From contig CDROCS010001432.1 in assembly GCA_977020255.1 (NCBI GenBank), forward strand, positions 372,001 to 436,000: a stretch of 64,000 bases of DNA, read 5' to 3'. The notes beneath the pieces were generated by a model. The model saw only the letters and a list, made by a program, of their open reading frames with translations. It ran no database searches and was not told the DNA's origin. Positions 1 to 52,000 of this stretch are shown in pieces. The DNA is from Obrimoposthia wandeli. Lineage: Eukaryota. Position numbers and translations under genes: made by a program. Position 1 is the stretch's first letter. Every line of letters begins with the position of its first letter.

Positions 1-184
1 TTAGGGTGCTTTATAATTTGAGTTTCATTATGTCTTATTCATATATCCTTATATAGAACTCACACGAAATATAAACAAAATGAGTAATAATAACATACAT
101 TCATGAATACAACCAAACAAATCCTCAACCAATCATGTGAGGTTAGATAGAATATAAACAATTCAGACATTATTTCTGATCACA

Positions 185-697
185 ATGTTGATAAACATCG
201 AGAAGAAGATAGCAATATCAGTGAAGAGGATCAATTCCATTGCATTGAAGAAAAGAAGCAAGAAACAGTCTATGGATTTTATTCAACAATTAGATATCTT
301 CAATGATGTCATCAAATTGAAGAAACCGAAATTTCAAGATCCTTATCATAAATTCGGATGGAATATGTATTTACTTGAAAATCCTATAACATTCCACTTC
401 TCCAATCATGTCAATGTAACGAAAATCAAGTTTGACTATATCATCAGAGATATCTATGAAGAAGATGTTATACAATTGAATGAACTCATGCAACAATTGG
501 ATATTGGATATAAAATCCATAGAAATTCTATATTGGTGAGAGCTGATGAAGGTATTTTTGCAGATTATTGGAATGTTGAAAAGGATATGAAAAATGGAAA
601 ATGGACTCTATTCATCATGATTCAAGGATTTATGATCAAAAGTGATGGAAGTTTAAAACCTATATGGAAGATTACCGAAGGATGTATAATGTTATAG
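185..697 (+). CDS. Unknown 170-aa protein, divergent paralogue of the Polinton-associated ORF X/ORF Y family
   Basis: Intact ORF. The C-terminus (WTLFIMIQGFMIKSDGSLKPIWKITE) matches the motif in ORF Y (WTVTIRLYGYKKDEIGTKLPMWKIE) and ORF X (WNISIRLNGYFADDGKMQPLWTLSE). The preceding LVRADEGIFAD resembles ORF Y YIRGADAAFLD. Confidence 0.6.
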   Translation: MLINIEKKIAISVKRINSIALKKRSKKQSMDFIQQLDIFNDVIKLKKPKFQDPYHKFGWNMYLLENPITFHFSNHVNVTKIKFDYIIRDIYEEDVIQLNELMQQLDIGYKIHRNSILVRADEGIFADYWNVEKDMKNGKWTLFIMIQGFMIKSDGSLKPIWKITEGCIML

Positions 698-3600
698 AAA
701 TTATTAATAAATATTGATGTTTTATCTTACGAATTTATGTCCAAATATAGACATGTACACATGTACCAACTTCCCTTGTTCTTGTCATCCAATTAGAAGT
801 TTGCAATATTTTGTCAATACTTGCATCAACCAATCAGAATATGCACATCTTTACATATATTATGTGCAAATATAAATATGTTCAGCAACTCTCCATAAAC
901 ATCTTAACCACCATGAGATTTTCCTCTTCTTAACCCTATAAAATAATCTATTTTTAGTAACATTGTATCATCTATTCTTATTGGTTAATCTGAGTCTCAG
1001 TTTTATATAAACAAAGATATATTTAAATAAACATGTAAGCTGATTTATAGCAACGTCATCATATTATTCATGGAAACACAAGAAGAAAAATCCAATATTA
1101 TGATGTCATTTTCCGGAATATCAATGGATCAATGTCTACCCAACTGAATTACAATGGAATATACAAGATTGCATCCTGTGGCTTAGTGACTCCTGTTTAG
1201 ACTCTATGGAATTAACTAATAAAGGTACATATTTTCTCCTTTATATTTATTAATATTTTATAAGAAGTTCGAAAGTTAAGGATATATTGATGTGAATATT
1301 GATATTTATTGAATTAGATGATTTATGAAACGTTAGTAATGAAAAGTAATATCTTAATAAAATGGTGAGAAACTATGCTATCTTTAGAAATATTAAACCT
1401 AGCCCCTAGATTCAATAATCAGTAGCTACTTGATAGAATAGATTAATCAATAAAATAGTTATGATGAATTATTGTTAAGGTTTTACTAGGATTTACAACA
1501 TGTGTTAGGATATAGATGAAATATGTGTATTATCGATAATTTTGGTATAAGATAACCTAGAAATTATTATATATCGAGAATATTCAAACCTACTTTTTAT
1601 TGTGGAAGTTGCTCAATAATAAAAATAGAAAAATCTATATTAGAAATTACAACAAAAATCTAATTATATGACACAATACACAAAAAAATACCTAAGAATA
1701 AATTAGCACTCACCACTAAAGAAAACATACAAAATCAATTAATTATTCAATAAAAAAAAATTCAAAATTCACCAATTTATAATTATAACATATTATAGCC
1801 AACACAAATATTTAGAAAATAAATATCAAGCTCAACTCATAATGATAGAAATGTTGATTAAATATCTAGCATTATCATATGAACAATAATAAAAGTTAAA
1901 ACGCTAAAAAATCAATCCATATTCGTAAACTTTACTGAATTCCAGGTCCAATAATGACATCCATAATACCAAGTGTCATAAATTCATACAACACATCAAA
2001 AATACAGTAATTCGAAAATCATATAAATGAAAGAGACAATACTCTCTGAGTTAAACACAATAAGAAAAACAATAGTGCATTTAATAAAAATAACTTAATT
2101 AATGTAAAAACAAATTGAAGAAAACCTAAAAACTTGAATAAACAACAACAAAAATTAATCACATATAAGAAATAACAACAACAAAAAATAACTCACATGC
2201 AGTAATTAGTAAATAAAAAGCTGTAAACTGAATAATAATAATAATATTATATAAAAGAACATAAGAAAGAAAATGACGACAATAAGAATAGTAATATTAG
2301 TAATATCAAATAATGAGACAATTCTCGTAGTTAAATGATTTTTTGTTGTGGGAAAATTACACTATTTTATATTGGAATGTTTTTTAATTTTACTGATTGA
2401 CTCCTTTTATTTTTTTGACTTACAAAAATATTTACATTTGCATGAACACTGACATTTTTATTCTAATTATGTGCCATATTCTGAGAACCATTCATAGTGT
2501 AGTAAGACATATTTGATTTTTTTTGATTAAGAATGTAATCTGTATTATTATTATTTATACAATTTAAGTTTCAATGAAAAAATCAACTTTTAATTAATTA
2601 TGATACTTTTATGATTTTATTACTTTAACGTCAGAGGTCTGACTTTGATTTCCACCATATTGTTGGTAATTGAAATAAATAGTTTAATTTAATTTATCGA
2701 AGTGTCCACAGTCGAACAGCGATTTTTTAAGACAGTGATAACCAGTTTTTATCTTTTGTTACGCGGTGAGAAAATTGCCCGTGAAATAGGAGATAACACA
2801 GAAGGAATTATTGCATCCACTATCGATTTTTCTGCCAACCCAATTTTAATTGCACCCCATACACACACTTTTTTTTATTTTACTGCCTTTATCTGTGTTT
2901 GGGTGCCGATTTACATGTGTGTGCCTGCAAATTTATAAAATATAACTTACGACAGAAATATTAATATAAAAATTGTTTAGTATGGAGAGATTTGATATAA
3001 TTTCTAAGAACAATTATTAAATTACTACAAAAAAGAAGAATTATTGCTGACCATATTTATTACTGTTATTACATAATTTAGAAATTATTACTGTTATTAC
3101 AGAAAACCGAAATTATTACTGACCATTGTTATTGCATTTACTGATTAAAACAGAATTTTTACTGATCATTTCCTCAAAATCTGCTTGGCTGATGACAGCC
3201 AGTCACTCATTGTTGGTACGTTGAGATGATGACTCAGCTACAGGCATGTAATATGGAAAGACGACGGATTACACGATTTCATTACCAAAAGCAGTTGTTG
3301 AGTCGAATTTATCTGCTGGTGCTGATGCTGGATCATTTGAAGAATATTTCACCAAATTACTGATGATATGTTTCTTTTTCTTGTTGGCCGTGAAATTGGA
3401 GGGGTGAGCCTGATGTTCAGCGAATAACATCAGATAATCCTTGTCCTTCATTGTTCTGCAGAATGGACAGACGTAAAATTCCTTCCATAAAGCCTTGTCT
3501 GATAGTAAGCAGACATTGTGTTAATGCAGGCTTCTCCTCCACGTTTAGCCAAAGCACCCCAATATACTGGAAACAGGAAGTCTAGAAAAAATATAAAAAT

Positions 3601-7646: not shown

Positions 7647-7940
7647 AGTAGGTGGATGAATCCGGTCTAATCCACACCCCCTCACTCCAACTGTCCTTTA
7701 AAACCGTACATGTGTGTGGAGTGAAATTTTGTCTATGTGTGTAGGGGAAAAAATTGAAAAATTGAAAAGTAATGAAGGGAAAGGGTGAGGGTGTACCCCA
7801 ACCCCAAAAAAAATTAATATTTTACTTTGAAATTTAACTCGAAAGTGGTTAGAGAAGACCACGGGAATCCATATTGGACCCGGCGGTTTATTGCACATGT
7901 TAAATATTTAGTTCAAATTTATAAGAGAAAAATTAGATCA
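7647..7940 (+). repeat. Terminal (probable TIR) region of the Polinton
   Basis: Homology with 35643-35970 begins abruptly at AGTAG. Its first 42 nt or so also match the reverse complement of 22431-22473. AG/AGT starts are typical of Polinton termini. Confidence 0.75.
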
Positions 7941-8000: not shown

Positions 8001-8453
8001 TTAAACATAAAACAACATATTGGCTTCACTCAAAGTCCAAAGAGGCTGCATTTTCCCGTCATCAGCAAAATATCCATTGAGACGTATTGAGATATTCCAT
8101 AGTTCTTCATCTAGAATTGGAGCAATTAAATATCCTAGATCATCTTTAAAATCCAGACTGGGATCAGTTTCAAGCTCGAAACAATTTCCTTCATATACAT
8201 AATCAGGAAAATAAATTCCCAAAATATTTTTCAATTGCTCAATATCAGATGTTGTTAAAATTTCGATAAGATATTTATTCTCCACTTTTGATATTTTCAC
8301 AGGATTCATAACTCGTATAATTTGATGCCTATTTAATATATTACATAGTTTTTCTTTTGAAATTCTGTCTGGATAATAAAAATTTGCTACACATCTCTTA
8401 TCCATTCTAAAATAAGGAAACTGATTAAAAACAATGTTTATAAAAAAATTCAT
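8001..8453 (-). CDS. ORF X, unknown Polinton protein (about 135 aa from MDK)
   Basis: Open in A and D (61026-61466), broken in B. Conserved C-terminal W-x-I-x-I-R-L-x-G-Y...P-L-W motif. Confidence 0.7.
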   Translation of the reverse strand: MNFFINIVFNQFPYFRMDKRCVANFYYPDRISKEKLCNILNRHQIIRVMNPVKISKVENKYLIEILTTSDIEQLKNILGIYFPDYVYEGNCFELETDPSLDFKDDLGYLIAPILDEELWNISIRLNGYFADDGKMQPLWTLSEANMLFYV

Positions 8454-8547
8454 ATAAGATACAAATCAGATAAAAATAAAACTGATTATTAAATGAAAGA
8501 AACATAGTAAAACCGATTACAATTTATTACACGCAAAAAGTTAAAAC

Positions 8548-9011
8548 ATAGAAATATGAGCACGTTCAATTTTCCACATAGGCAACTTTGTTCCCATTTC
8601 ATCTTTCTTGTAACCATAAAGTCGAATTGTTAGAGTCCATTGTTTGTTTTTCGGAAACGCATCAATAAGCGGTTCATCTAAAAATGCTTCATCGGCTCCT
8701 CGGATATAAAATTCGTTCTTATTGAAAGTAAAATTCGGAACTGCCTTTTCAACTTTCTGTTTAAGATATTGAAAATCTGGTTTTCGAATATTTTATAGAT
8801 AGTAGCTGAACTTTCTTCTTTCAATTGTCACAGGATTTACTAAAGCAATCAGTTGAACCTTCTTCAAGAATCTGACTTTGTATTTGAAATATTGTTTCAC
8901 TTCTTCATACTTATCCTTATCTGATTCTTCAAATATTTCTATATCTTCGTCATCGCTTAATACCCGTTGGCTATCGTCCATCATTGATAATTGTCTTTGA
9001 TATGAATGCAT
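8548..9011 (-). pseudogene. ORF Y, unknown Polinton protein, frameshifted near 8790
   Basis: Homologous to 36524-36937 and 60553-60891. Confidence 0.7.
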
Positions 9012-9261
9012 TTACTGTGATTTGTCCTCCAATGGCGCATTATTTTATACTAATTTCTAACAAAAAACATGAATCTCATTGGTTAATATAACTAAAGCAT
9101 TGAATTTGATTGGACTAAATCCATATTAAAAATCAAATTTTATTGGAAGAAATATATCATCCAATTATAATAGGTTTGCAAGATAATTACAAGAAACGTG
9201 CAATAAAAACACAGGTTCAGACATATATAAAGAACATTTTATAGAATACAATTTTAGTCTA

Positions 9262-9585
9262 ATGAAACTCGTACATATAAATTATAAAGGTAGAACAGAA
9301 GATGATGTTTCGTACTTACCATTCAATGAATGGAAGCCGAGACAATATGTGGAAAACTTTGACAATTTCACAGTTGTTATTTTTCCTACAGGTTAGTTTT
9401 TTATTTTATTTTCATATTGAATTCTTTTAGGAAATTGTCGTGTTATGGGATGCAAAATACCAATGCTTGGGTTCAATTTACCATTTGGAATTCGAATCAC
9501 TGCAATACAATCAATCACGATTTCGGCTAATCTTGGGAAACAGATAAATCTTTTTAAAATTGCAGAGAAAATAAGGATTGACTAT
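9262..9585 (+). pseudogene. TBP-like gene: exon 1 (9262-9391), 39-bp intron (9392-9430), start of exon 2
   Basis: MKLVHINYKG...KPRQYV...TVVIFPT/G-NCRVMGCK aligns with TBP repeat 1 (TALIFSSGKMVCTGAK). The intron is GTTAG...TTTTAG and contains an in-frame stop. Confidence 0.75.
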
Positions 9586-17945: not shown

Positions 17946-18807
17946 TTTGCAAAAATTGTTCCTTCAACTTTCTTACGTTTGTTTATATTATTTTTTGCTT
18001 CTTTTTACGTTTAAATCTACTACCTCCTTGGCTTTAATTTGATTTATCTTTTCTAATTTAATTAACAAAGTTTGGGTAAAACATTATCAAGTTTATCAAG
18101 TGCATGCTTTTTAAAAGTTGGTATTAGTTTATTGTCATTAGATCTTTTTGCTAATTTTGAAACTCCTGTGTAGCCAATCGGATCTTTTGGATTGAACCAT
18201 ATCTTCTCCATTACAACAATTTGAATATATAGAAAATTTAAATTTATGTAAAGAAGGGTTAGCACCCATATCTTTAACTGATTTTAAAATTAATTGTTTA
18301 TGTACGTGTCGCAGCTATAATACTACTGATAATTGAAGCAACAACTGCAATAACAGCCCCTATGAAACTACCAATATGTTTAAGAATAATATTTCGTTTC
18401 CTTTTTTTACTTTTTACATTTGCCAATATTTAGAAGAGTTTTTCTATATTTTTTAATACATTTTCCGTTTTTCAACTTTTACTCGACCCAAAACTATATT
18501 ATACAAAACTTCCAATAAATCATATACAACAAAATATGGAAATGCTTTAAGAATACTCATTCTCTTATGAGAAGAGGCTTTGACCAAAGCTTTAAAATAA
18601 AGTAGGCGTCTTTGTATTTTCTTCATTTAATAAAAAGTTCAATTTTAATATTGTTTATATTCGAAGCCATTTAAGTTTTCATTTATTTCTAACTACAGAT
18701 TTGATTAATTTATTCACTTCTTTTTTCTTAAAGATTCTTTTTTTAATTTCTTAGACTTTACTTTACGTTTACGTTTCACTATGAACTTCTTAAAAGGCAT
18801 TGCAAAT

Positions 18808-19455: not shown

Positions 19456-19491
19456 TGCATATACTCTTTCATTTTAATATTGTTTATATTA

Positions 19492-20321
19492 TCATAGAAA
19501 TTTTCTTATTGAAATTTATAATGTTAGAGCTATTGTAGATGAAATACAAAAATTAATTAATGAAGATTTGAATTAATGAAGATTTGAATATAATTTTATT
19601 TATTTGTGTTCAATTTCTAAATTCTCGAATAACGTGTGATCTAACCAATATATCAGTATTATCTCTTGTTATATCATTATTTTTTAATTTTGATAAAATT
19701 TGTTTACCCCTAATTTTTCCAGAAAATATTTCGTCGACAAGACGATCCACTTCATTGTCTGTATTTATAGTATTATTCATCTGAAACAATAGTTTTAAAC
19801 GGGTTTGTTTATAGAAAAAAGATAACAAGATGCGATAAGATATATTTTCTAAAATCAAATCAACAATGTCTGGATAATCAAAATTTTTCAATCCCAATTT
19901 CATAACTTTATCATTGAAATATATATTTACACATAACGGTTTAAACTTCAAATAACTGAGAGCAGGAAAAATTTCCGGTTCATACATGCATTCTTCTTTT
20001 ATTTTTTCTGCAATTTTAAAAAGATTTATCTGTTTTCCAAGATTAGCTGAAATCGTGATTGATTGTATTGCAGTGATTAGAATTCCAAATTGTAATTCGA
20101 ACTCAAGCACAGGTATTTTGCATCCTATAACACGATAATTTCCTAAAAGAATTCAATATGAAAATAAAATAAAATAAAATAAAAAACTAACCTGAGGGGA
20201 AAATAACAACTCTGAAATTGTCAAACCTTTTCACATATTGTCTCGGCTTCCATTCATTGAATGATAAGTACGAAACATCATCTTCTATTATACCTTTATT
20301 ATTTATATTTACGAGTTTCAT
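19492..20321 (-). pseudogene. Most complete TBP-like gene: exon 1 20321-20192, 49-bp intron, exon 2 reading through into a helical C-terminal domain
   Basis: Repeat 1 VVIFPSGNYRVIGCK; repeat 2 IQSITISANLGKQINL...MYEPEIFPALSY...VNIYFNDKVMKLGLK versus TBP YEPELFPGLIY...LIFVSGKVVLTGAK. Late stop and small duplication near 19560-19610. Confidence 0.8.
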
Positions 20322-22119: not shown

Positions 22120-22473
22120 ATGAGCTAATAGTGAGCACATGGGCTCATGAATCTTGATAGCATGCTAACCTTATGATAACCTTGGGCTCATGGTGTGCAC
22201 ATGAGCTCATGATCTTATAATAACCTTGGGCTCATGGTGAGCACATGGGCTAAAGCGATGAGTAAAATAAAACAAAGGACATGAGTCATAACCTTGAAAT
22301 GATCTTGAAAATTAGGTATACTGGAGAGAGATTTTACCTACATCACATGACCTTGGCCTAATGTGACGTTGACCTTGAAAAATCAGGTGTACTCGGGAGA
22401 TATTTTACTTTAACATGACCTCATATGACCTCTGGGGAGGGGGGGTGGATTAGACTGGACACATCCTTCTACT
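22120..22473 (-). repeat. Terminus of a related Polinton-like element with subterminal repeats
   Basis: The reverse complement begins agtagaaggatgtgtccagtctaatccacc...ctccccc, matching 35643. Inward are repeated catgagctc, gataaccttgggctcatggtg and tgacct motifs not found in copies A or B. Confidence 0.65.
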
Positions 22474-34039: not shown

Positions 34040-37000
34040 AGTTACTCGATGAGAACGGCCTAAGTCGGTCTCTATCTGACGTTAAGATCAGTGACATGAT
34101 GAACATGTTACCCAAACGTCAGACCGATGATACTAACGGATGGGAGTTTTCACAGATTGATCCGTTCTACAAGCCTAAGGCGTTCTGTGGTCCGAGTGAG
34201 ATCAACTTCGACGGAATGGACATAATGGAGATGGATCCCGGCTGCCGATCGGAGTCACGCGTGCTTGTGCTCTACACTGGAGGCACCATCGGCATGCGCA
34301 TGAAGAACGGATCCTATGAGCCAGAGAGCAACTATCTGTGTCGAGCACTCAGGAAGCTACCGATGTTTCATGACCCAAATTTGAAGTGAGTATGGATAAA
34401 TATTTATTGTGGATTTAATAACTATCCGTATTACACGTTTCAAACTCAACAAAGAACGTCTGGGACTGAATGGTGCCGGTCATTTCCTCCGTTTATCACG
34501 AAGATAAGCCTCAATGAATTCATTATTAAAACGTCTAAATCAGCGTTTCTTAACCTTTTAATGCCGTTTATCCCTTTTTTAGGATTCATTTAAAAGATTC
34601 GTCAATTATTATTAGTAGTTGAAGTTCAATTCATCTAATTTGCACATATATGGCTGTGTACCAAATATGGGATTTTCATTGCTGGGAGACCCGAAAAACG
34701 AAACTGAAATCATAGGATAATTGATCACGAGGATCACAAATCACCATGGATCAGATACCAAAGCAGCTCTAAACTCCCACTTGGCCAATCCATTTGCAAT
34801 AACTTGAAGTTTTGTGCTATGCCTTGTGGATTGGAGTCACCCTAATCTAATAGTAGAAATTTCTGCACCCCATTCTCTAAAATTCATCCCTAAGGGCGTG
34901 TGCCCCCGGTTAAGAATCACTGGTATGGATCAAAGAGTAATAAACAAAATATTGAAATCGATAATTTATAAATATAATATTAATACTATACTAATAATGT
35001 TTGCATACGGTCGTACGCAGATGTGAGGCACTGTCACAGTTCAACAACCTGTTCATCATGCCTCGGTCTCGTGAAGGCAGACGCGTGGTGTACGTGGTGA
35101 ATGAGTACGATCCCATTCTTGACTCCTCCGACATCACCATGGACGACTACGTCCACGTGGCTAAGGACATCGAGAGCCAGTACGACTTCTACGACGGCTT
35201 CGTGATTCTACACGGGACTGACACTCTCTCCTACACTGCCTCTGCACTCTCATTCATCCTGGAGAATCTCAGTAAGCCCGTCATCGTAACTGGCTCCCAG
35301 ATCCCCGTCTTTGAGATCCGTAGTGACGGCCGGGAGAACCTACTCACATCGCTGATGCTGGCTGGTCACTACCAGATCCCGGAGGTCACTGTCTTCTTTC
35401 ACGAAAAGGTATGTAGTCTAAACCAAAATTGCTCACATTAGTAATACTATAGTATCAGAATGGTCTACAGATGGAGTTAAATTGATAAAATTTTGATAAA
35501 ATATTTCTTATCACGAAGCTTTAATCTATCTACTCTTTCTGTACATGATGAAACAATTTGTTGAAAAAATGATTAAACAAATTACTTTTATTGACTTCAT
35601 AAAAATATTTTTGTAATGCAAATAAATTATTACTGACACTACAGTAGGTGGATGTGTCCAGTCTAATCCACACCCCCTCCCCCACTGTCCTTTAAAACCG
35701 TGCATGTGTTTGGAGTGAAATTTTGTGTGTAGGGGAAAAATTGAAAAGTCATCGAATAGGAAGGAAGGGGAGGGGTCCACTCCCCCCATTATTTTTTATT
35801 TTACTTAGAAATTTATCTCAAAAGTTGTTAGAGAAGACCACGGGAATCCATATTGAACCCGGCGGCTTATCGCAGAAGAGATTTCAAATATATTACTACT
35901 ATTTTTAAGAAAGATTACTACATGTTAAATATTTAGGTCAGATTTATAAGAGAAAAATAGATCTATATAATTTAGAGGAGAAAAAACAAAATACGAGTCA
36001 AAATTATTTTTTCAAACATTTATTAAACATAAAACAACATATTGGCTTCACTCAAAGTCCAGATAGGCTGTATTTTCCCATCATCAGCAAAATATCCATT
36101 GAGACGTATTGAGATATTCCATAGTTCTTCATCTAGAATTGGAGCAATCAAAGATCCTAGATCATATTTAAAATCCAGACTGGGATCAGTTTCAAGCTCG
36201 AAACAATTTCCTTAATATACATAATCAGGAATGTAAATCCCCAAAATATTTTTCAATTGCTCAATATCAGATGTTGTTAAAATTTCGATGAGATTTTTAT
36301 TCTCCACTTTTGATATTTTCACAGGATTCATAACTCGTATAATTTGATGCCTATTTAATATATTACATAGTTTTTCTTTTGAAATTCTTTCTGGATAATA
36401 CAAATTTCCTACATATCACAGAAGAGGATCTATTCTAAAATAAAGAAATGGATTAAAAACAATGTTTATAAAAAATACATAAAATATACAAATATTATGA
36501 AAATAAATAAAACTGATTACAATTTATGACATGCAAAATGAAAGAAACATGGTAAAAGAAATAGGGATAAAAATAGAGAAATGAGTACGTTCAATTTTCC
36601 ACATAGGCAACTTTGTTCCAATTTCATCTTTCTTGTAACCATAAAGTCGAATTGTTACAGTCCATTGCTTCTTTTTCGGAAACGCATCAACATATATTTC
36701 TCTTCCATAGTCATCTAGAAATGCTGCATCGGCTCCTCGGATATAAAATTCGTTCTTATTGAAAGTAAAATTTGGAATTGCCTTTTCAACTTTTTGTTTA
36801 AGATATCGAAAATCTGGTTTTTGAATATTTGATAGATAATAGCTGAACCTTTTTCTTTCAATTGTCACAGGATTTACTAAAGCAATCAGTTGAGGATTCT
36901 TCAAGAATCTGACTTTGTATTTGAAATATTGTTTCACTTCTTCGAATCACTGCAATACAATCAATCACGATTTCGGCTAATCTTGAGAAACATATAAATC

Positions 37001-40000
37001 TTTTTAAAACTGCAGAGAAAACGAAAGAAGAATGCATGTTTGAACCATGCATTTTTCCTGCTATCAGTTATTTGAAGTTTAAACCGCTATGTGTAAATAT
37101 ATTTTCCAGTGGTAAAGTTATGATATTGGGATTGAAAATTTTTGATTATCCAGACATTGTTGATTTTATTTTAGAAAATATATCTTATTACATCTTGTTA
37201 TCTTTTCTATAAAAAAAAACCGTTTAAACTTATTGTTTCAAATGAATAATATTATAAATAGAGACAATGAAGTGGATCGTCTTTCCGACGAAATATTTTC
37301 TGGAAAAATTAAGGGTAAAGAAATTTTATCAGAATTAAAAAATAATGATATAACAAGAACAAACATTGAAATATTGGTTATATCACACGTTATTCGAGAA
37401 TTTAGAAATAGTACACAAATAAATAAAATTATAGCCAAATATTCATTAATTAATTTTTGTATTTCATCTACAATAGCTCTAACATTGTACATTTCAATAA
37501 GGAAACTTCTATGATAATATAAACAATATTAAAAAAATGAAAGAGTATATGCAATGGAGCTAAATAATAATGCTGTATTTCAAATAGTTGACCCAAGTGG
37601 AACTGGAAAGACACATTTCGTCTGTAAATTGTTGCAAAATGAATCTCTTTTCAAATCTAGTTTCAAAAATATTTATTGGCATCATGGTGGAGGAGGGGAA
37701 AGCGGGTTAACCAAAACAGAAGTTTGCAAGTTAAAGGATATAAAATTTATTGAAGGATTTGATACAAATTGGTGTGAAAGATTGAAAAAAGAAGATGTAA
37801 TAATAATTGATGATTTGTATCAGGAAGCTAACAAGGAATCGGACTTTAATAATTTATTTACAAAGATTGCAAGACATCGTGAAGTAACAGTTATATTTAT
37901 CACCCAAAATGTTTTTCACCAAGGAGGTCACCATAGAACAAGAAATCTTAATGTACATTACTTAGTTTTATTTACAAATCCTAGAGATCAAACAGTTGTA
38001 GATTTTGTGGCCAGACAGGAATTTCCCCAAAATAAGAACTTTCTAGTTGATTCATTCCACGATGCTGCTAAACAAGCTCATGGGTATATATTTATTGACT
38101 TTAGATAAGCTTGCCCAGATGATTTACGTGTTTTAACAGACATATTTAATTCTAAGGGAGTAACTGTTTATAAACAAATAGAGAACAATTATAAAAGATA
38201 AATTTACAATGCCTTTTATGAAGTTGATACTAAAACGTAAAGCAAAGCCTAAGAAATCAATAAAAGAATCATTAAGAAAAAAGAAGTGAAAAAATTAATC
38301 AAATCTGTAGTTAGAAATAAGACAAAACTTAAATGGCTTAAATAAACAATATTTAAATTGAGGCTATTTTATTAAAATGAAGAAAATACAAAGAAGCATA
38401 CCCTATTTTAAAGCTTTAGTCAAAGCCTCTTCTCATAAGATAATGATTATTCTTAAAGCATTTCCATCTTTTGTTGTAGATGATTTATTGGAAGTTTTGT
38501 ATAATATAGTTTTGGGTCGAGTAAAAGTTGGAAATCGGAAATATATATTAATGAAATATAGAAAAACTCTTCTAGATATTGCTAATGTAAAAAGTAAAAA
38601 AAAGAAACGAAATATTATTCTTAAACATAATGGTTGTTTCATAGGGTCTGTTATACCGGTTGTTGATTCAATTATCAGTAGTATTATAGCTGTGACACGA
38701 TCACAAACAATTATTTATAAAATCAGCTAAAGATATGGGTGCTAACCCTTCTTTACCTAAATTTAAATTATCTTTCTATTCAAATTGTCGTAATGGAGAA
38801 GATATGGTTCAACCCAAAAGATCCAATTGGCTACACAGGAGTTTCAAAATTAGCAAAAAGAACAAAACGAAATTACAAGAAAACGTAGAAATGGCTGAGC
38901 GACCAGTTAGCCTACAGTCTGAACAAGCCGATGAGAAGAAGGTTTCCAACTAGAGCTTACAAAACCAGCGGCCCTAATAATTTATGGCAAATGGATTTGA
39001 TGGAGATGATCCCATATTCTTCCATTAATAAGGGATATCGATATATTTTAACATGTCTTGATGTATTTAGCAGGTTTGCATGTGCAATTCCAGTTAAAGT
39101 AAAGTCTTCAATAGCTATGCTTGAAGACATTAAAGAAATATTAAAAGAGGACATTCCACAAAATGTGCAAACTGATTTAGGAAAATAATTTTATAATAAG
39201 CAAGTTCAATCATTATTTAAACAAAATAATATAAATCACTACTCTGTGTTTTCACAGTACAAAGCAGCAGTAGTAGAAAGATTTAATCGTACTTTAAGAG
39301 ATCGAATAAAAAAGTATTTCACAAAAGAAGGAAATAAAAAATGGATCCAAGTTTTACCTAAAATAATACATGCATATAATCACTCGGAACATAGAGGTCT
39401 CAAGGGAATGAGACCTGTTGATGTTACTAATAAAAATTCTATGGATATTTGGATGGACAGGAATAAAAAAGAAACTATTAAAAAAACTAAATATAAGAAA
39501 AACGAATATGTCCGAATTTCGAAAATTAGCTCTACTCCATTTATTAAAAAATTTAATTAGAATTGGAGCGATGAAATATTTTGTATAAGTAAAATTGATC
39601 AAAAGAGTAATCCAATAATGTATACTATTAAAGACGTTGACAATAATATCGTTCACGGTAAATTTTACGAGCAAGAACTACAAGTAATATCAAATAAACC
39701 TAGCGTTTTCCGTATTCAAAAAATATTAAAATCTAAGGGTGCCGGTAAACATAAACAATATTTTGTTAAATGGCATGGTTATTGAGATCCAACTTGGATA
39801 TAATATAATATGAAGTCTATGTATATAGTTTTACCTAGTAACGGATGTCCGATGACTCAACCAGATAATTACGCTAGTGGCTTTATTATCGATTGGGAAA
39901 ATCTTATAAATCTCCAAGGAGAATGGGAAGCGGCTTTAACAGAATTTTCCTTTTATTATTCTCCAATTACTATCAGAAAATTCACATATTTCGTTTACAA

Positions 40001-43000: not shown

Positions 43001-46000
43001 GTCGATATTTCTCTAATTCTATGTATTGAAGCTCGTACATTCTGAGTTTAGAAATGTCTAAAACCGTTTGACCTATATAACTCGGTCGATCGAGACAAAT
43101 ACTCTGTTTTCCTAATAGCACTGCTACCAAGTCATCTGCAATTGTAAAACTACGCTTGAAGTTGTACTTGCTAGTATATGTTATTAGTTTACGCTCATCA
43201 TTGCAAAACCGTAGACAAATACGTTTCCGAAAGTCCTCTACAGTTTTTCCAAGTAGAATTGAAGAAGCCGCCAATGCACAACATAATTCAACTTGTCTTC
43301 AACAATAATTTCTTAACCTTTGAATTAAGTGGGCATTGATGAACAGGCGCTACTGAAAGATCATCTAATTTATCATGCACATTGGAAGGGATTGTTAAGT
43401 CAACCTCAATCAAATAGCCGATGTCTGATGAAACTGTATCAACAGTAGCCAAATCTGTCATCAACTTATTCAACTCTTCCTCATCATAAACCCACTTAAA
43501 GTTGGCATGAGGTAGAGGTTGAGTAAGCGCCCACCCATACAAATTAATAATGTCGATGTAGAGAATCTCCGTGGATTGATTATTGACAACATGATGTTTG
43601 TGGACAAAAGTCATTCCACCGCGTATACCATAATCATATATTTGATACATCGCTGGATCTTGCAGTAACTCGATATTAATTTTAAGAGTTTTTATTGCTG
43701 TTGCCCATGAAAGACATGGTAAACTAAAGAAATTCATGGGATCTAGCTCATATTCTGCTAAAGATTTTACACGAAAGGACTCAAAAACATCAGCTAAAAG
43801 ATAAATGTCTAATTTCATATAATAAAGCATATATTCTAAAAGATTTCGACAATTATTCGCCCAAAATGTATGGGCCTCATTATAGTCTTGAAGAATTACA
43901 CTTTCAAATTCAGTTATGGGTATGATTTCTGTAGTATTTTCTAAATCTGCTTAGTGTATCCAACGCATAATTAAGTATATGATGCAAATCATATCCTTTG
44001 AGGTTATGAAACACGATGGGAATTCGTGGTTTTTTAGGGAGACGACAGCCAAGGTTACAGAGGTTGCACAGGTTGCACGCCGCTCCCAAGTATCGCCCCG
44101 TAACATGATCGTGATCTCTGAAAAACTTAGACTGGGTTCCACACAAATAACATAATCTACAAGAATTAAAATTAACCCAGTCTATGCCTGTCATGATCAT
44201 TGCTTGATGAGCATTAAGATCATACCACGGTTTGACAATTGTTGTTCCTAATTCTTCTAATTTTAACATAAAATCTAAAATACAATTTGGACCGGAAAAT
44301 TTATGATACTGTGTAATATTGGGGCCTAAGAATAGTAGTCCTGCCGAAGCCGGTAGGTTAATACTCTTATACTGGTCGTGCAATGCTAAAATTCCTAACA
44401 AATCTGTTCGATTGTTGATAAAAGGTCTCTTTTTTGCATACGAATCCACTGCTTCCTCTAGACTAGTGTTGTTCTTTGCCATTACAAATTTGTCGATAAT
44501 ACCAGACAGTATCTTTGCGCACTCCTCGTTGACATCGTAGTTTCGCAGTAACCCAAAAATATCGTCTTAGGCCCCCTGCAGGAAGTTATAATTACTCCCG
44601 TTGTTTACCTGCGCTTCATTATTTCTCTTCCTGCCCATGTCAAAGTTTTCAGATCTTATTATTTTTATTCAGAATTTTTAAACAAATTTTTTGTTTTTTT
44701 GTTTGTTGGATCATTGACAAAATGCTCATTTTCAGGCACACGAATCCGCTGTTGTTTGTTGTTGTTGTTGTTGTTTTTTTAAGGGCCTTTTCTACTTTAC
44801 GTAGGTCCAGGTCTCAATCTTCTCCAGTTCCTTGGCTGACAACCTATCCAGGGTCCCAGTTGTATGACTCGAGAATTTAGCCCACGAGGCCGCTGTATGT
44901 TCGATGGTTTTCAGGGTTAGTCGGATCTTGATATCCTTGATCTCCTTTGCTTTAAACCAGCATTTGCAAAGATCCGGTTATTGATTTCAGGCCAGTAGCC
45001 GAGGGTCCCGATCTTTAGCGCGTAGAGTTGCACGAGTTTTTCTGCGTGGCGGGTCTTTAGCATTTTAACGAGCTCCGCGTATTTGGACATAGTTTCGGTG
45101 AGCCTCAGATCAAATGACATGACAGAGTCAAACGGGATCTTGATCTCTATCAGCATCACCTTATAGTCAGTCTCGATCGTTATGTCTGGTCGTGGTCTGC
45201 GGCTGTTTCCGTTATCGTCTACACATAAGTGGGTCAGCTCTTGAGTTACCTGTCCTGGATATTTTAGTTCCATGACCCTTGCAGTTTCCCGGCAGATCAT
45301 GTCGTGTCTTTGAATTCGTAGTTTTGCTATGAGCTTACAACCAACGATTGCATGGCTCATCGACTCTCGCTCCTGGCATCCCTTCCTGCATGGGGCGATC
45401 ATATCAGTCCTGGGGCCTCGTACCTTCATGCGCCCGCACCTTGCGCGGTGGATGAAGAACCACCCTCGGTACGTCAGAAGGCCCTTCATGATGGCCCGGT
45501 TAATGTCTGTGTCTGATGTGGCGTTCTTATATATTGGACTCGCTAGCTTGTCTTCGAGAACCTTGTGACTCTGGCTGAGTTGCACAATGTTATGCATGGC
45601 CTTACTTGTGGCCTTGTAGGCCTTGAACTACATGAGAAAACTGCGTCCACGGGCGCTGGTTATGAACAGATTGAGTGCTTGGTCCTTCTCAATCAGTTCT
45701 AGTTTGATATTTAGCTCATTCTGGAATTTCTTGGCTGCGTGGAACAGCCGCGTCCAAAGTCCCGTATCTTTCATGTTAGTGGCTAGGGTCCCTTCATTAA
45801 ACCCCTGAACTGCTTCGGAGAAGGTCATTGGCAGATTAGGAAACTTCAATTGTTCGGTGAGCTCACGCCTGAATAGGTTCTTCAGGTCCCTGTCGCGTGC
45901 ATTTGCCATCTTTATCGTCTGGATGATGGACTGGATGTTATATTCGTCCTCAATCCTTGTCAGCCCAAGACCTCCACGGTCCTTGTGCACATAGAGAACT

Positions 46001-49000
46001 CCGATAGGGCTGTTGGCTAAGTCTAGTCCAGCGATTGGTTTTATGACTTTCCTTAGGAGTCCTTCTAAGCCCCTTTCGTCTGTTCGGTTGCAGGATAAGC
46101 GGGAGTGTACCAGGTTTCCCTGTCTGAATACAAATATCAGCTTTGAGTGAATGAAGGTATTGTATGCGTCAGTCTTTTGATACGGTCTTAGTTCGCTTTT
46201 TGCCACTGCCGTGGTCAGTCGAAGCACCTCAGCCAACAGCTCCTCGCAATGTTGCTTGGCGTTTGCAGTCCTGTCGTTGCCAAGGTATCGGTATGGCGTG
46301 TCCGCAGTTACCTCTGGTATTTTTTCTCCTCTCAACATGAGATTGTCAGCTAGTTTGTCTTTCCTGTAAGGTATTCGTAGGACACCACACTTGCTGGGCC
46401 GGAATGTCAGCTGTAGTGTACTCGCAGTCTTGTCAGCGGTATTGATCAGGGCCTGGAGTCCTTCTTTGGAGCTAGATATGAGTGCAAGGTCATCGGCGTA
46501 TGCCAGGGTCCGGATTTCTTCACCTGTTTCAAATCTGTATCCTGAGCCATGGCTTTGGTTTGTGGCCTCTATTACCGGATTGATGCTCATATTAAATAAG
46601 AGCATCGATAGTGGACACCCTTGTCGCACTCCTCGTTTTATTGGGATCCGGTTGATTTTCCTGTCACCACAGACAATGTTGGTCATATTCTGCTTATATA
46701 CATCTTCAAGCAGTCTGATAGCGGCTGGGGCCACGTTAATTCTTTCCAGCATTCCCCAAATGAAAGAGACTGGCACCGATCCAAAGGCATCGGCCAGATC
46801 TAGGAAGGCGATGTAGGCGCAGCCTTGGTTCCTCTTTCGCAATACTTCTGAGGTGATCAGGCTAATCACCGTGTTGTGCTCATAGCACCCCTCGTAGGCA
46901 CCAAGAGATTTTTGTCGTGGATCCAGTATTTTATTCTTCCAGGCCCAATCACTCATCCGTCTTGTGATGATTGACGCAAATATCTTGTAGACGTTAATTT
47001 ATGATACTGTGTAATATTGGGGCCTAAGAATAGTAGTCCTGCCGAAGCCGGCAGGTGAATACTCTCATACTGGTCGTGCAATGCTAAAATTGACTCAAAA
47101 TCTACATACACCCTGAAATCCACGGGTATGCATTTTGCCCAATTCCTGAATTTTAAATCCTTAGGCATGCTATATAGCGTATTGTCATCAGGATTCAGTG
47201 AACATAATGTCAGATGTTTGCTGTAAGAGAGCTCGGATCGGAACCCATGCAAACATCTATGACACCACTTACACCTTATCCTAACCGGTAAGGCTCCATT
47301 ATCTAAATTTAGAAGACGATCTAAACTGGGAATTGCAGCATAATGGAATTTATTATTATGTTCGAGCAAAATTAAGTTGACCTGAGTCCCCTCATTTTTG
47401 CTCCTATAAATTACATCTACAAAAGGATTTTTAAAAATTTCTTCATCTGTTACATTAACTGGGATATCAGTATTATATTTGAATACATTAATACTCAAGT
47501 TATTAAGGTGTTCAAATCTCGATATCGCAGTTAATTTAACAGGAAAATCTATTTCATGATACTGCAATTCATTTAAAAAAGGGGTATATTTACTGACACG
47601 CTCTCTATGCTCAGTAATTACATCCCTTTTGAGGATGGCCAACACGCTATACAGAAAGCAAAGGTTATCACTGTTTTGTATGTTAACAATGAAACGTGAA
47701 AGTTGAAGAGATCTAGGTGAAGGAATGTATGAACTCCCCGAAAGATATATCATGTCAGTGAACTTTGTTAGAACAAAGCTAACATCGTGAATTCTAACTA
47801 GAGTCCATCCACTACTTAACTCGCTATAATTAGCAATTTTCTCCTCATTGACATTTTTAAACTGCACTGTTGTGCAAAATTAGCCTGTCCTAATTTAGTC
47901 ACTTCTAATTTTAAAAGATTTTCATTATTTGAATCTACACCTACGTTTAATAAAATTTCATTTCCTAATGGCACCTTAACTATAACATATTTATTATTTA
48001 GGTGATACTCTATAGTAGCACCGTTTTCTCTACGTTTTTTGGGTGGGACCTTATTAAGAAATTGGCCTCGTCTCTTTCTTCCTACAGTCGCTGACAAACC
48101 TCCCCCTAATTGAACGGAAAGACAACTATTTATATTAAATGTTGAAGTGGTGCTGCCGATATTGAGGCAATCGCAGCTGATGTGGAAGAGGCTGCTATTG
48201 GACATGCTGCCGATGTTGATGCAATCACAGCTGATGTAGACGGTGCTGCTATTAATGGTGCTGCCGCAGATGATACAATGGCAGTTGTAGATGCTGCATT
48301 TGGAGTAGTAGCAGGCATTGTCGATGCATTTTCTCGATTAATATCAAAAGTTAAAAATCAGATGTATAAACCACTTACTTGAACAACATCGATAATATTG
48401 ATAACATGTACATAAATATGTTGAACTACAACATTAGGCTCGTTCATATGCTCACCTACAATGTTAAGTCCAACCTTAATATGAGGTTAATTTAAAATCA
48501 AGTTGGAAAACTATCAGACAGACCAACAAACTCACTATCATTGTCAATCAATGAAGTTTAAAGTATTTTGACTTAATTCGGGTTCCCAACTATGTACAAC
48601 TGTAAAATCAATTGTTTCTAGGTCTAAATCGTAATTATTTATTTGTATTTTTAAAGAATCTTTAAACTGCAAACATTGTTAACTGGGTTCTATGCCGTAT
48701 AAAAATCGGTACAAGTTAAATATGTAAATAGTTTATCGCATGATGAACAAATAAATCGGTAATAAACATCATCTCTAAAATTAGGAACTGGTAATTTTAT
48801 TTGTTGAATAAATATCTTCTCATTCTCAATCAAATATACAGAGTTAAGATTTACCATAGGCCATAAGTAAGCTTATATTGTTACAGTATTATGACGTTTG
48901 TTTATAGTAGAACGTCGTCGTCGTCCACTACCTCTTTTTGCTCTGCAATTGCTGCTGATGGATGTGATTCAATATTCTGCTTTCGTTACTGTCGCTTTTT

Positions 49001-52000
49001 TAATAATGATATATACATTATTTTTTGCCGACCTAGCTTCGGGTATCATACCACCGACTTCATACATATATATACTACCTAATCCATTCAATAGTGGAAA
49101 GCAATACGTGCAAGATTTTAAAGCCATTCTGAAACATACTGTTTATATCTAAAATAAATTTATCGCCATGTTGACTCGCATTATGCATATTGACTATACT
49201 CATACTGGTTTAAAATATAATGTACTTTGGGTTTTCGCTTCGTATGAAAATTCTGGAAATTGACCACTATCATCACAAATATTAATTTCAATATTGTTTA
49301 TAGATGCAATTGAAACAGATAAGTACATTGATCCATTGATACATTTGAACATTCACAACATATCCATATCTTTTGTTTGGGTCCACCCATGTTGTACCCA
49401 ATAGTGAAACGCGAAGGTCACGTACTAACATCGTATCTACAATTCTCGAGAAGGCTTTTGTTTATATACATAATGACATCCTTATGTAAAAATAGAAATA
49501 TGTAACTATGTGGTTGCATCTTTAAACGAATCAATTAAATATTGTCTATTAGGTGGAAAAGATTTTCGTGCTTCAAAACCAATAACAGTCTAATCTCTTA
49601 ATTTCCTTAATAAAATCAAATAATGAACGTTTAAGACTCCTGTACTATGTTGACAACTTTGATGAAAAATGTTTTGAGTAATAAGTATAACTGTAACATA
49701 ACTATGCCTGTCTATCTTTGGAAACAACTTATTAAATTCCAAATGTTTATTAGTTTCTTTATACAAATCATCAATAAGAACATCATTAGATTTTAGTTGA
49801 TCTGAACAACTTTTGTCAAAACCATCTATAAATATAACGGGGTTTAGTTTAAATAGTTCAGACATGACAAATACATCATAATGTCAATAGATTTCGTTAA
49901 AGTTCTAGTAAAATACTGTATTATCTTGCAGTAATTTGATTATATAATGGGTTTTACCACTACCACTTGGTTCAACTATCTGATAAACTAGATTATTTTT
50001 TAAATTTCTTAACCCCTAAATATAGAAATCATCAAGACAAAAGATTGTTTATGATATACCTTTTATTAACAAATACAAACATGTAGAACTGAATAATGTG
50101 ATTGAAGTCATGACTATGATTGAATGAATCTTGTTGAAATTGAAAAATATATCAAAATCCTGACACCACTTGATATCTCGATACTGGTAAGTATGCACAA
50201 CTGCTTTGACATTGGCTCGATTACATTCTCGTAATGACCACAAATATCCGTGATGGGCTGGGTTCCATTCATTATTTCATCGACAAGGCATTGAACTTTA
50301 TTATCGTATTCATTCTTATCAGGATATAAATTTCAGTTGTTTATACCATGAAATTTAATATTTCTAACTCGATGTAAAAGAAAACAGTTGCACAAGAGAC
50401 ATGTAATGAATTGTTTTGAACATTTAATACATTTGAACTTTTCGATGCATCTTATTCATGATTCGGTCTGCTTACCGTACATTGCAATGCACATTGTACA
50501 TTTGACATTCTGCATTTAAATATACAAAGTTGTCACTTTCTAATAGTTTCTGTCTTTCAATTGCAGCTGTACCGCGGAAATAGAACCTCAAAGATGTCGT
50601 CAGTACACTTCGATGCATTTGATTCTCCCAACTACCCGGCACTGGCGAGTCTGGGTGTGGAGGTGGTGGTGCACTCTCAGCTAATTCGCTCGAGTCCTGA
50701 CGGCCACTTCAGAGTCTCAACCAATCTCTGTCCCGATGTCAGCGTACTGCGCATGTTTCCGTCCATCACCACCCAGACCCTCGCAGCATTTCTCACCCCA
50801 CCTGTACAAGGTCCGTCACTATTCTACATAATTATATTGACATTTGTATGGTGATTTTGACAATACATTACTTATATTTATAAGTGATATATTATTTACC
50901 ATTTCAATCAAATTAAACTGTTATTGTTAAAATGTTGTCTATGATTTATTACCCAATATTGCAGGAGTTGTGCTGCAGACCTATGGGGCCGGTAATGTAC
51001 CTCTGTCTCGCAAGGACATTCTGCGCCTATTTCGAATGGCCACCAACAACGGTGTCATCATAGTCAACATCAGCCAGTGCTGGAAAGGCGGAGTAAAGTC
51101 GATCTACCGGACAGGATCCATTCTCGCCGAATATGGAGTCATTTCAGGCATGGTGAGACACTCGCAGGAAGACTTACACGTACAAGATCCTATAATTTAC
51201 AAAGAAATTCCCATACTGTTAATATTGTTAATGCATTTAAATTTTTATTAAACAAACTTCAGTAAATGTTTAGAATATTTTTTCAATTAGTTAATTTTAT
51301 GTATTACTTTCACCTTTATGGTAATGAATGGTGATATTTTCCTGACTACAAGGCGCGGCTTTTTAACTTTTAAGATGCCAATAAAACAATAGTTTGCTTA
51401 TTAAAAAGTCGTTTCTAATATTTTAATCAGGTAGAGGGATTATTTTGATATCTGATTAATATATGATGTGCACTTTTGTAATAGGCGCACTTCTGTTTTA
51501 TTGGCATTCCAACAGTTACAGAGCCGAGCCTTATAGTCCGGAAATCGGTAATTATTGTGCAAAGCCTGAAAGAGGAACCCGGCTCTCAGGATATGACACC
51601 AGAGGCTGCTCTGTTGAAGCTGGCATACGTACTAGGCAAGTCCGACTGGTCGCTGGAGCGCAGGCGACGAGCTATGCGAGTGTGTCTGTGTGGAGAGCTC
51701 ACGAATCAGCAACCGGCCACTAACTTCAGCAAGGGTCGTCGCCAGAGCCACGACAGCCAAACCCCTGTCAGTGGTTCCAGCGGCCAGTCGTCGATGGCTT
51801 ACGAGCGGCAGGGAATCATCGCTACCGCCATGTGCTCTGCCGCTCGTGCCGGCGATGTTGTGATGCTGACGAGGCTCGGTACCAAGTACAACTGCTGGGA
51901 GGTGAGATTGCGGGGACACTGAAACTCTCGTTCCAAATACCAGACACCGTCAAAGGCAGTGAGAGACAATATATATTATATTACGCGAGAAAGGAATTTC

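Follow-up and report, generated by a model that had tools for sequence, protein, structure and literature searches.

The window analysed here, a stretch of 64,000 nucleotides from an AT-rich 1.35-Gb animal assembly, contains a single Polinton/Maverick family in four copies, all of them decayed and rearranged and mostly 83–96% alike over long stretches. They hold pieces of PolB (PF03175) at 43291–43950 and of an rve integrase (PF00665) at 57984–58424, together with parts of a packaging P-loop ATPase whose Pfam score is below the cut-off and a protease that matches that of a related element (L056), itself above the cut-off for PF00770. Conserved ORFs of 408 and 340 amino acids in the expected place are putative capsid genes; neither matches a sequence in Pfam, PHROG or the PDB, and the putative capsid identity of the 408-aa protein rests on gene order and size. 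The terminal motif (AGTAG...) of the copy described below lies at 7647–7675 (+) and recurs at 22473 (−) and 35643 (+), three matches compared with none in 100 shuffles. Neither a matching far terminus nor a target-site duplication was found within the window. PolB, rve integrase, packaging ATPase and adenain-type protease are shared with known Polintons/Mavericks (adintoviruses), to whose termini the AGTAG motif may correspond. The family is very abundant, and three genome searches returned 42,667, 19,768 and 43,089 first-look candidates, which are not copy numbers.

A host asparaginase-like gene with ankyrin-like exons spans 34027–54052 (+), recognised by Pfam for 34998–35438 only and by inspection for the rest, and the third Polinton copy appears to sit in an intron of this gene. 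Inside the PolB of that copy lies a non-LTR retroelement (44298–47091, −) with RVT_1 followed by a restriction-like endonuclease ORF identified by inspection. It is flanked by a 96-nt direct repeat (97% identity), which is long for a target-site duplication.

The gene under study encodes a protein resembling the TATA-binding protein (TBP). In its first copy, exon 1 (9262–9391, +) begins with an ATG at 9262, comprises 130 nt (43 codons plus 1 nt) and encodes strands of the helix-less N-lobe. The intron (9392–9430, +) is a 39-nt GT-AG segment in phase 1 with a T-rich tract and the in-frame stops TAG and TGA. Exon 2 (9431–9574, +) is broken off before the C-lobe stirrup; from about 9574 homology to the other copies is gone and unrelated AT-rich DNA follows. 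The original prediction had placed a TBP gene at 9262–9585. The ATG, exon 1, the intron and the start of exon 2 are indeed there, but the homology stops at about 9574, and this copy is a dead, truncated fragment of the gene. The second copy, called copy C in that prediction, retains a 130-nt exon 1 (20192–20321, −; ATG at 20321), a 49-nt GT-AG intron (20143–20191, −) and exon 2 (19610–20142, −), which scores above the Pfam TBP cut-off, has a degenerate last strand motif and runs in frame into the next gene. The third copy preserves only the 3′ part of exon 2 (36941–37212, +) and ends at the box of the next gene, and the fourth preserves exon 2 only (59930–60263, −); in both, exon 1 and the intron have been deleted. 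No undamaged TBP gene is present among the four copies in the window.

A joined protein bearing both YEPEIFPALSY and IFSSGKVMILGLK had been read from the first copy, which contains neither motif. YEPEIFPALSY comes from the copy at 20321, in which the IFSSGKVMILGLK motif is degenerate, and IFSSGKVMILGLK comes from the copy at 36941, itself without exon 1. Each piece is real, and the whole is a composite of several damaged copies. Pfam TBP (PF00352) recognises the exon-2 frames of three copies at 33.1, 41.9 and 31.0 bits against a cut-off of 22.9; the fragment at 9262, read with X, reaches 14 bits and falls under it, and exon 1 alone gives no match. The score derives from the C-lobe only, and relatives of the protein score 48–63 bits. 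A family profile, by comparison, matches exon 1 of both copies that possess it (E values of 1e-11 and 3e-11).

The protein of the window family measures about 153 amino acids, in line with relatives of about 150, and other Polinton families of the same genome have intronless TBP genes of 144–145 amino acids. In 14 of 29 genomic copies selected on their 5′ part, the open frame of exon 2 extends over 109 residues, with the stop falling inside the TATAAAC box of the next gene. A C-terminal fusion with a 210-residue exon 2, for which the first genome query had favoured read-through, was rejected: only 1 of the 29 copies reads on for 210 residues. The part downstream of the TBP frame is a separate boxed gene, and it is also separate in L052 and L054 (weak similarity, E value of 0.005). 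In the window this next gene encodes about 90 amino acids with a hydrophobic C-terminus, and its TATAAAC box at 19807–19813 (−) lies 33 nt before the ATG at 19780. The box overlaps the TBP stop codon in two families, here and in L108 (2436–2442, −). The T-run ahead of the overlapping box varies among copies, so that some TBP frames run on into the next gene.

Two further genes lie beside the first TBP copy. orfY (8541–9011, −), interrupted in this copy, stands head-to-head with the TBP gene, and its paralogue orfX (8001–8405, −) has a TATAAAC box at 8436–8442, 37 nt upstream of the ATG. They form a conserved paralogous pair beside TBP and differ in the copies of this genome, in which orfX has the late box and orfY has TATAAAAG, a canonical one. 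A short GT-AG intron seems to divide orfY in several metagenome loci (among L036–L062). The idea that orfY is a TBP-like or TFIIB-like partner was rejected, as it matches neither the TBP family profile nor any PDB entry; in the Atlas it gave a weak lead to Rep_trans-like clusters with low recognition.

The original prediction had described a phase-1 GT-AG intron with an in-frame stop, 39 bp long in one copy and 49 bp in another. Both lengths were found, each after the same 130-nt exon 1 (copies at 9262 and 20321). Removing the segment yields a protein that matches contiguous homologues, and in alignment with six intronless relatives (39–51% identity) the segment falls in an exact 13-residue gap. 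Among 30 genomic copies that were chosen by their exon 2 and include the window's own, the segment measures 34–49 nt (38 in most) and exon 1 has 130 nt in 29. In the 29 further copies picked on the 5′ part, exon 1 has 130 nt in 28 and the intron 38–39 nt in all, ending in AG in 29/29 and beginning with GT in 24/29. A distant element on a metagenome contig (L060) has a 40-nt GT-AG intron at 376–415, in the same glycine codon and with an unrelated interior. These comparisons support the 39-nt segment as a spliceosomal (U2-type) intron that would be spliced out, and such an intron would imply nuclear transcription by the host's Pol II. Host TBP genes have introns of 47 and 48 nt, which we also count in favour of the intron. 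The 38–39 nt of the Polinton intron are fewer than in both host introns measured, a point that we count against our preferred explanation. The intron-joined form was not among the 15 matches listed of 101 (four runs of one sample, contigs of unrecorded kind), which is uninformative.

In the tree, L060 does not come out as a sister of the window family, and the intron may therefore have been gained twice. Given this placement and an insertion site of the CAG|G junction type, two independent gains are as likely as one gain followed by many losses. Among 150 listed representatives of the profile matches, 13 start at profile position 50, just past the intron site, and could represent other intron-bearing elements in which only exon 2 was called as a gene.

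The decay among the copies is rich in C>T/G>A changes and has damaged all those in the window, intronless TBP families coexist in the genome, and the window family lacks an Arg that its relatives conserve. This combination could be read as a dead remnant, in which the 39-nt segment is a never-spliced, inactivating insertion and the copies were spread with the help of the families with intronless TBP. We consider that reading very improbable. An insertion of this kind leaves to be explained the GT-AG ends, the T-rich tract and the exact codon boundary at a point where relatives are contiguous, as well as the different intron at the same site in the distant L060. It also sits poorly with a segment that ranges from 34 to 49 nt while exon 1 keeps its 130 nt in 29/30 and 28/29 copies, and with an exon 2 that stays open to the same stop in 14/29.

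The gene belongs to an old, widespread family of TBP-like Polinton proteins of about 150 amino acids. A profile built from seven relatives found 618 proteins at E≤0.001, of which the best 120 are 136–267 amino acids long. Among representatives it matched 2,772 at 1e-3, 476 at 1e-10 and 53 at 1e-30, with a tail that takes in cellular TBPs. In 57 metagenome loci with TBP, many on contigs of only 1–2 kb, matches to the window's other genes comprised the ATPase in 16, orfY in 15, the protease in 11, the integrase in 10, the putative capsid in 9 and PolB in 2; PolB and integrase both adjoin TBP in L044 and L054. For the tree, 65 rows chosen by us from the matches were compared over 179 columns with a midpoint root. 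A branch with 100/100 support divides the tree, with the 47 rows of the family and its remoter compact relatives on one side and 18 rows of eukaryotic, archaeal and NCLDV-like TBPs on the other, and the window gene falls inside a group of 31 rows (100/97). The phylogeny called for by the original prediction thus sets the family apart from all three, and the 100/100 split from cellular TBPs argues against a recent capture from the host.

Matches to TBP in IMG/VR (L031–L035) were discarded as family members: they share 24–31% identity, and those inspected or placed in the tree fall outside the family. Two of these loci (L032 and L034) are NCLDV-like contigs that encode a 566-aa protein with a TBP-like start and a long, basic, repetitive tail. 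The host itself has at least five TBP-like loci (L093–L102), of which contig C238 has two head-to-head and C968 a single one, while those on C60 and C1092 are divergent, lack introns and are nearly identical to each other.

To describe the fold we used an AlphaFold2 model of a natural relative (P0003; 51–54% identical to the window family, 120 sequences). The model has a pLDDT of 96 and a pTM of 0.85, with strands only in the N-lobe and two helices in the C-lobe. A model of the window family itself, read with X, reached a pLDDT of 59, and the fold is thus based on the relative. Foldseek returned 44 matches at E≤0.001, of which all listed ones are TBPs, with a match across both lobes at an E value of 3e-9. 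Superposition with TBP (VIA) gave a Z score of 13.7 and an RMSD of 2.7 Å over 151 residues, in the form of a two-lobed saddle with a continuous β-sheet. A profile search of the PDB matched TBP in two stretches, and a similarity search with P0003 in the Atlas retrieved TBP-family clusters only. The fold prediction, for the relative, and the profile comparison that had been proposed for this gene came out as TBP, and the claim of a TBP encoded by a Polinton is borne out by Pfam, by the PDB profile matches over two stretches, by the fold of the relative and by the gene neighbours of the relatives.

Of the four helices of TBP (H1, H2, H1′ and H2′), only the two of the C-lobe are present, and an alignment with TBP from pig, soybean and archaea is gapped where H1 and H2 would lie. 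The prediction of two TBP core repeats thus holds for the two-lobed fold of the relative, but the N-lobe is no normal repeat, having no helices and having lost the first intercalating Phe. For individual residues we counted columns in the 120 relatives, mapped onto cellular TBP by alignment, with yeast numbers counted from PMC1636458. The equivalents of F116, F190 and F207 are Phe in 120/120 relatives. The fourth, equivalent to F99, is mostly Lys/Pro/Ser or a variable residue depending on the register, so that the predicted intercalating Phe positions are conserved at three sites and not at this one in either register. At V71, V122 and T124, which face the DNA, the family has Asn (117/120), Arg (119/120) and Met (120/120), respectively. 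The positions of I194, V203 and L205 are occupied by Arg (119/120), Cys (120/120) and Asn (120/120), and these three are the residues altered in yeast TBPm3, which reads TGTA (available text of PMC1636458). The same text assigns the 3′ half of the TATA box to the N-lobe. The intron-bearing family of the window has Ser at the I194 position, and because this Ser replaces the conserved Arg, its protein may be weakened. TRF2 has likewise lost an intercalating Phe and does not bind TATA (PMC10005294, available text); we count the loss of one Phe against our preferred explanation.

Compared with cellular TBP (PF00352; eukaryotic TBP/TRF and archaeal TBP), the Polinton protein shares the two-lobed saddle, a C-lobe with both helices, the EPE.FP stirrup, three of the four intercalating Phe and the Asn of the first strand. 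It differs in its length (about 150 rather than 180 amino acids), its N-lobe without H1/H2, the lost F99 equivalent, the invariant polar residues at V71, V122, I194 and L205, an identity of only 20–25% and a separate long branch. The C-lobe stirrup glutamates, which contact TFIIB, are Glu in 115/120 and 120/120 relatives. According to the available text of PMC7221094, two C-lobe glutamates bind TFIIB, and a basic patch on N-lobe H2 binds TFIIA, Mot1/BTAF1, Brf1/2 and TAF1.

The genes of the element fall into two promoter classes, TATAAAC before structural and packaging genes and an ordinary TATA with an initiator before TBP. TATAAAC occurs at 48 sites in the window, compared with 24.1 ± 4.8 in shuffles. 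Boxes lie 32–42 nt before the ATPase, a small basic ORF, orfZ, the putative capsid, orfX and the gene after TBP, and none lies before TBP. The box of the packaging ATPase (19482–19488, −; also 37518+ and 59651−) is 33 nt upstream of the gene, and that of the putative major capsid gene (17981–17987, −; also 41198+ and 57387−) is 42 nt upstream. It is absent at two starts checked in the third copy and at orfY. The TBP gene has instead the ordinary TATA box TATATAAAG at 9224–9232 (+), 38 nt upstream of its start, and of 58 genomic copies inspected 54 have this box.

The same division is seen in metagenome loci, which were dereplicated at 85%, the box being sought 15–70 nt from the ATPase start. 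(T/C/G)ATAAAC precedes the ATPase in 12/12 dereplicated loci (shuffle mean 0.41, maximum 3) and the putative capsid in 5/7 (0.34, maximum 2). TATAAAC precedes TBP in 0/35 loci, and canonical TATAWAW does so in 19/35 (shuffle 5.3, maximum 11). For the other 16 of the 35 the stretch scanned contains no canonical TATA, which we count against our preferred explanation. Initiator-like motifs lie 27–34 nt past the TATA in 17 of the 22 TATA-bearing regions among 36 distinct TBP upstream regions, a count without a shuffle control. Across 13 loci an ORF begins 30–41 nt after TATAAAC at 38/78 sites, compared with 3/78 for the reversed box. The corresponding values for other boxes are 2/73 for TATAAAA, 3/62 for TATAAAT and 1/36 for TATAAAG (6/171), and 0/21 for GTAAACA. 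The spacing is 32–40 nt at 47 of 61 boxed starts, and the logo of the box extends to TATAAACA with A in 53/61 sites. A distant element (L105; 24% ATPase identity) has neither a TBP nor a box before ORFs of at least 90 amino acids, and is too distant to count as a control; scans of IMG/VR yielded no usable TBP-less Polintons for such a comparison. That TATAAAC would impose a Hoogsteen pair in host TBP is a point for which we found no paper and which carries no weight in our analysis.

Pieces of at least one other Polinton family in the window, at 48900–50350 (−) and 70–1010 (+), have an ATPase about 70–75% alike at the DNA level and TATAAAC boxes; no TBP piece was found in them, and the second contains an orfY-like ORF at 185–697. 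In several loci (L044, L047, L054, L060, L064 and L106–L108) a small Met-Gly ORF with its own late box overlaps the start of the integrase in another frame, the integrase itself being without one; a possible myristoylation could be envisaged for its product.

The link between the TBP protein and TATAAAC is one of co-occurrence in the sequences. We propose that the gene is probably the late-promoter factor of this Polinton lineage, an early viral TBP that directs host TFIIB and Pol II to the late genes. The host machinery would transcribe the TBP gene early, from the ordinary TATA and initiator motifs present there, and the host spliceosome would remove the short intron. The protein presumably keeps the ten-stranded DNA-binding saddle seen in the model of its relative, and its invariant polar residues at several DNA-facing positions could allow it to read the variant box TATAAAC(A). 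Such boxes stand 32–40 nt before the genes for the packaging ATPase, a small basic core-like protein and the putative minor and major capsid proteins, and would be the sites of action. If this is correct, DNA containing TATAAAC would be favoured over TATAAAA/TATATAAG by the family protein. Host TFIIB, and hence Pol II, would be recruited through the two kept stirrup glutamates. The TBP–TFIIB interface is DNA-dependent. Because both N-lobe helices are lost, the protein may escape TFIIA, TAF1, Mot1/BTAF1 and Brf, and would be neither held, evicted nor used by them. The original prediction had guessed at service to late capsid genes, for which the TATAAAC box is now a candidate target site. The wider proposition, towards which we lean only slightly, is that a widespread Polinton clade runs an early-to-late cascade through a one-protein switch composed of a minimal TBP without the N-lobe regulatory face, host TFIIB and a private TATAAAC box.

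The box could also be read by another factor, either from the host (TBP, a TBP paralogue or a forkhead protein) or from the element (such as orfY), with the viral TBP bending DNA elsewhere, for example to repress early TATA promoters or to act at the termini. The host does offer candidates with its five or more TBP-like loci. ATAAACA resembles a forkhead motif, and the extension of the logo to TATAAACA (A in 53/61 sites) fits such a reader, but GTAAACA, the best forkhead site, had no ORF at that spacing in any of 21 cases. orfY adjoins TBP in 15/57 loci, yet its homologues were not seen in loci with TBP after the protease, where the box is still there. The box moreover has the strict orientation and the spacing of a core-promoter element (38/78 forward against 3/78 reversed). 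We also weigh against this alternative that yeast TBPm3 disfavours C at TATA positions 6–8 (available text of PMC1636458), and regard another reader as unlikely overall. A decoy or shut-off factor, which occupies TATA boxes or sequesters host TFIIB and so damps host transcription without activating viral genes, would account for the retention of the TFIIB-contacting glutamates along with the absence of co-activator surfaces. It leaves unexplained the invariant DNA-facing changes and a matching box before structural genes only, and seems to us improbable, if slightly less so than the dead remnant.

The proposed late-promoter factor has analogues among viral TBPs that are already known. KSHV ORF24, EBV BcRF1 and HCMV UL87 are the TBP mimics of the beta/gamma-herpesvirus vPIC, which acts on TATTWAA late promoters (PMC6541308, available text). 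The logic would be alike, in that a viral TBP fold is combined with host Pol II and with a variant TATA some 30 nt ahead of the late genes for structural proteins. However, the herpesvirus mimics are large, bind Pol II directly and work in a six-member complex with five partners, as far as that text describes them, whereas the Polinton protein is a bare 150-aa core with the TFIIB stirrup kept, and its box is TATAAAC rather than TATTWAA. BcRF1 shows weak structural similarity to P0003 (E value of 3.7e-3).

NCLDV and poxvirus TBPs (available text of PMC7221094) are likewise two-lobed viral TBPs in which the N-lobe regulatory signature is not conserved, and P0003 matches NCLDV TBPs in Foldseek at 2e-8 and weaker. 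Their TFIIB glutamates have mostly diverged and they are paired with a viral TFIIB, according to the same text. The Polinton TBP, unlike them, has kept both glutamates, has had its N-lobe helices deleted outright and has no detected TFIIB in its element. No TFIIB match was found among the element ORFs scanned, several small ones of which are without assignment, and PF00382 has only 12 matches genome-wide despite the great abundance of the element. The main text of PMC7221094 does not mention Polintons, Mavericks or adintoviruses.

For the adintoviruses of animals, the available text of Starrett et al. 2021 (PMC8502044) lists TBP neither with the hallmark genes nor with the accessory ones, and the animal maps (Fig. 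S2) carry no TBP label in that text. A 'TBP' gene label does appear in its section on non-animal datasets, in the legend of Fig. 5, for MELD viruses with adintovirus-like PolB; the text describes no family, structure, intron or promoter for it. While viral TBPs as such are known, the Polinton TBP family with its helix-less N-lobe, intron and TATAAAC late box is undescribed in the literature searched, which included few subscription papers and no Repbase reports. The bare label in the MELD map, which may denote this family or another, is an earlier mention of a TBP-like gene in a Polinton-related element, and the gene family is old, widespread and found well beyond the element studied here.

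It has long been debated whether Polintons/Mavericks should be seen as transposons or as viruses whose life cycle is regulated, and in the literature searched we met no account of what activates their capsid genes. With a dedicated TBP and a matching late box, this activation becomes directly testable. If the proposed mechanism is true, no smaller late-transcription system would be known from a eukaryotic DNA virus, it would be a natural orthogonal TBP–promoter pair, and it would give a sequence handle on endogenous Polintons that enter a virion-producing phase. A natural TBP stripped of the surface for TFIIA, TAF1, Mot1 and Brf is also useful for the question of a minimal platform for Pol II initiation, and the sequences suggest a way in which changes at known positions can redirect the specificity of a TBP. 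Among the more distant relatives that group with the Polinton family, proteins of 155–185 amino acids (P0214, P0216, P0218, P0223 and similar) have shortened N-lobe helices in the alignment, which suggests that the helices may have been lost stepwise.
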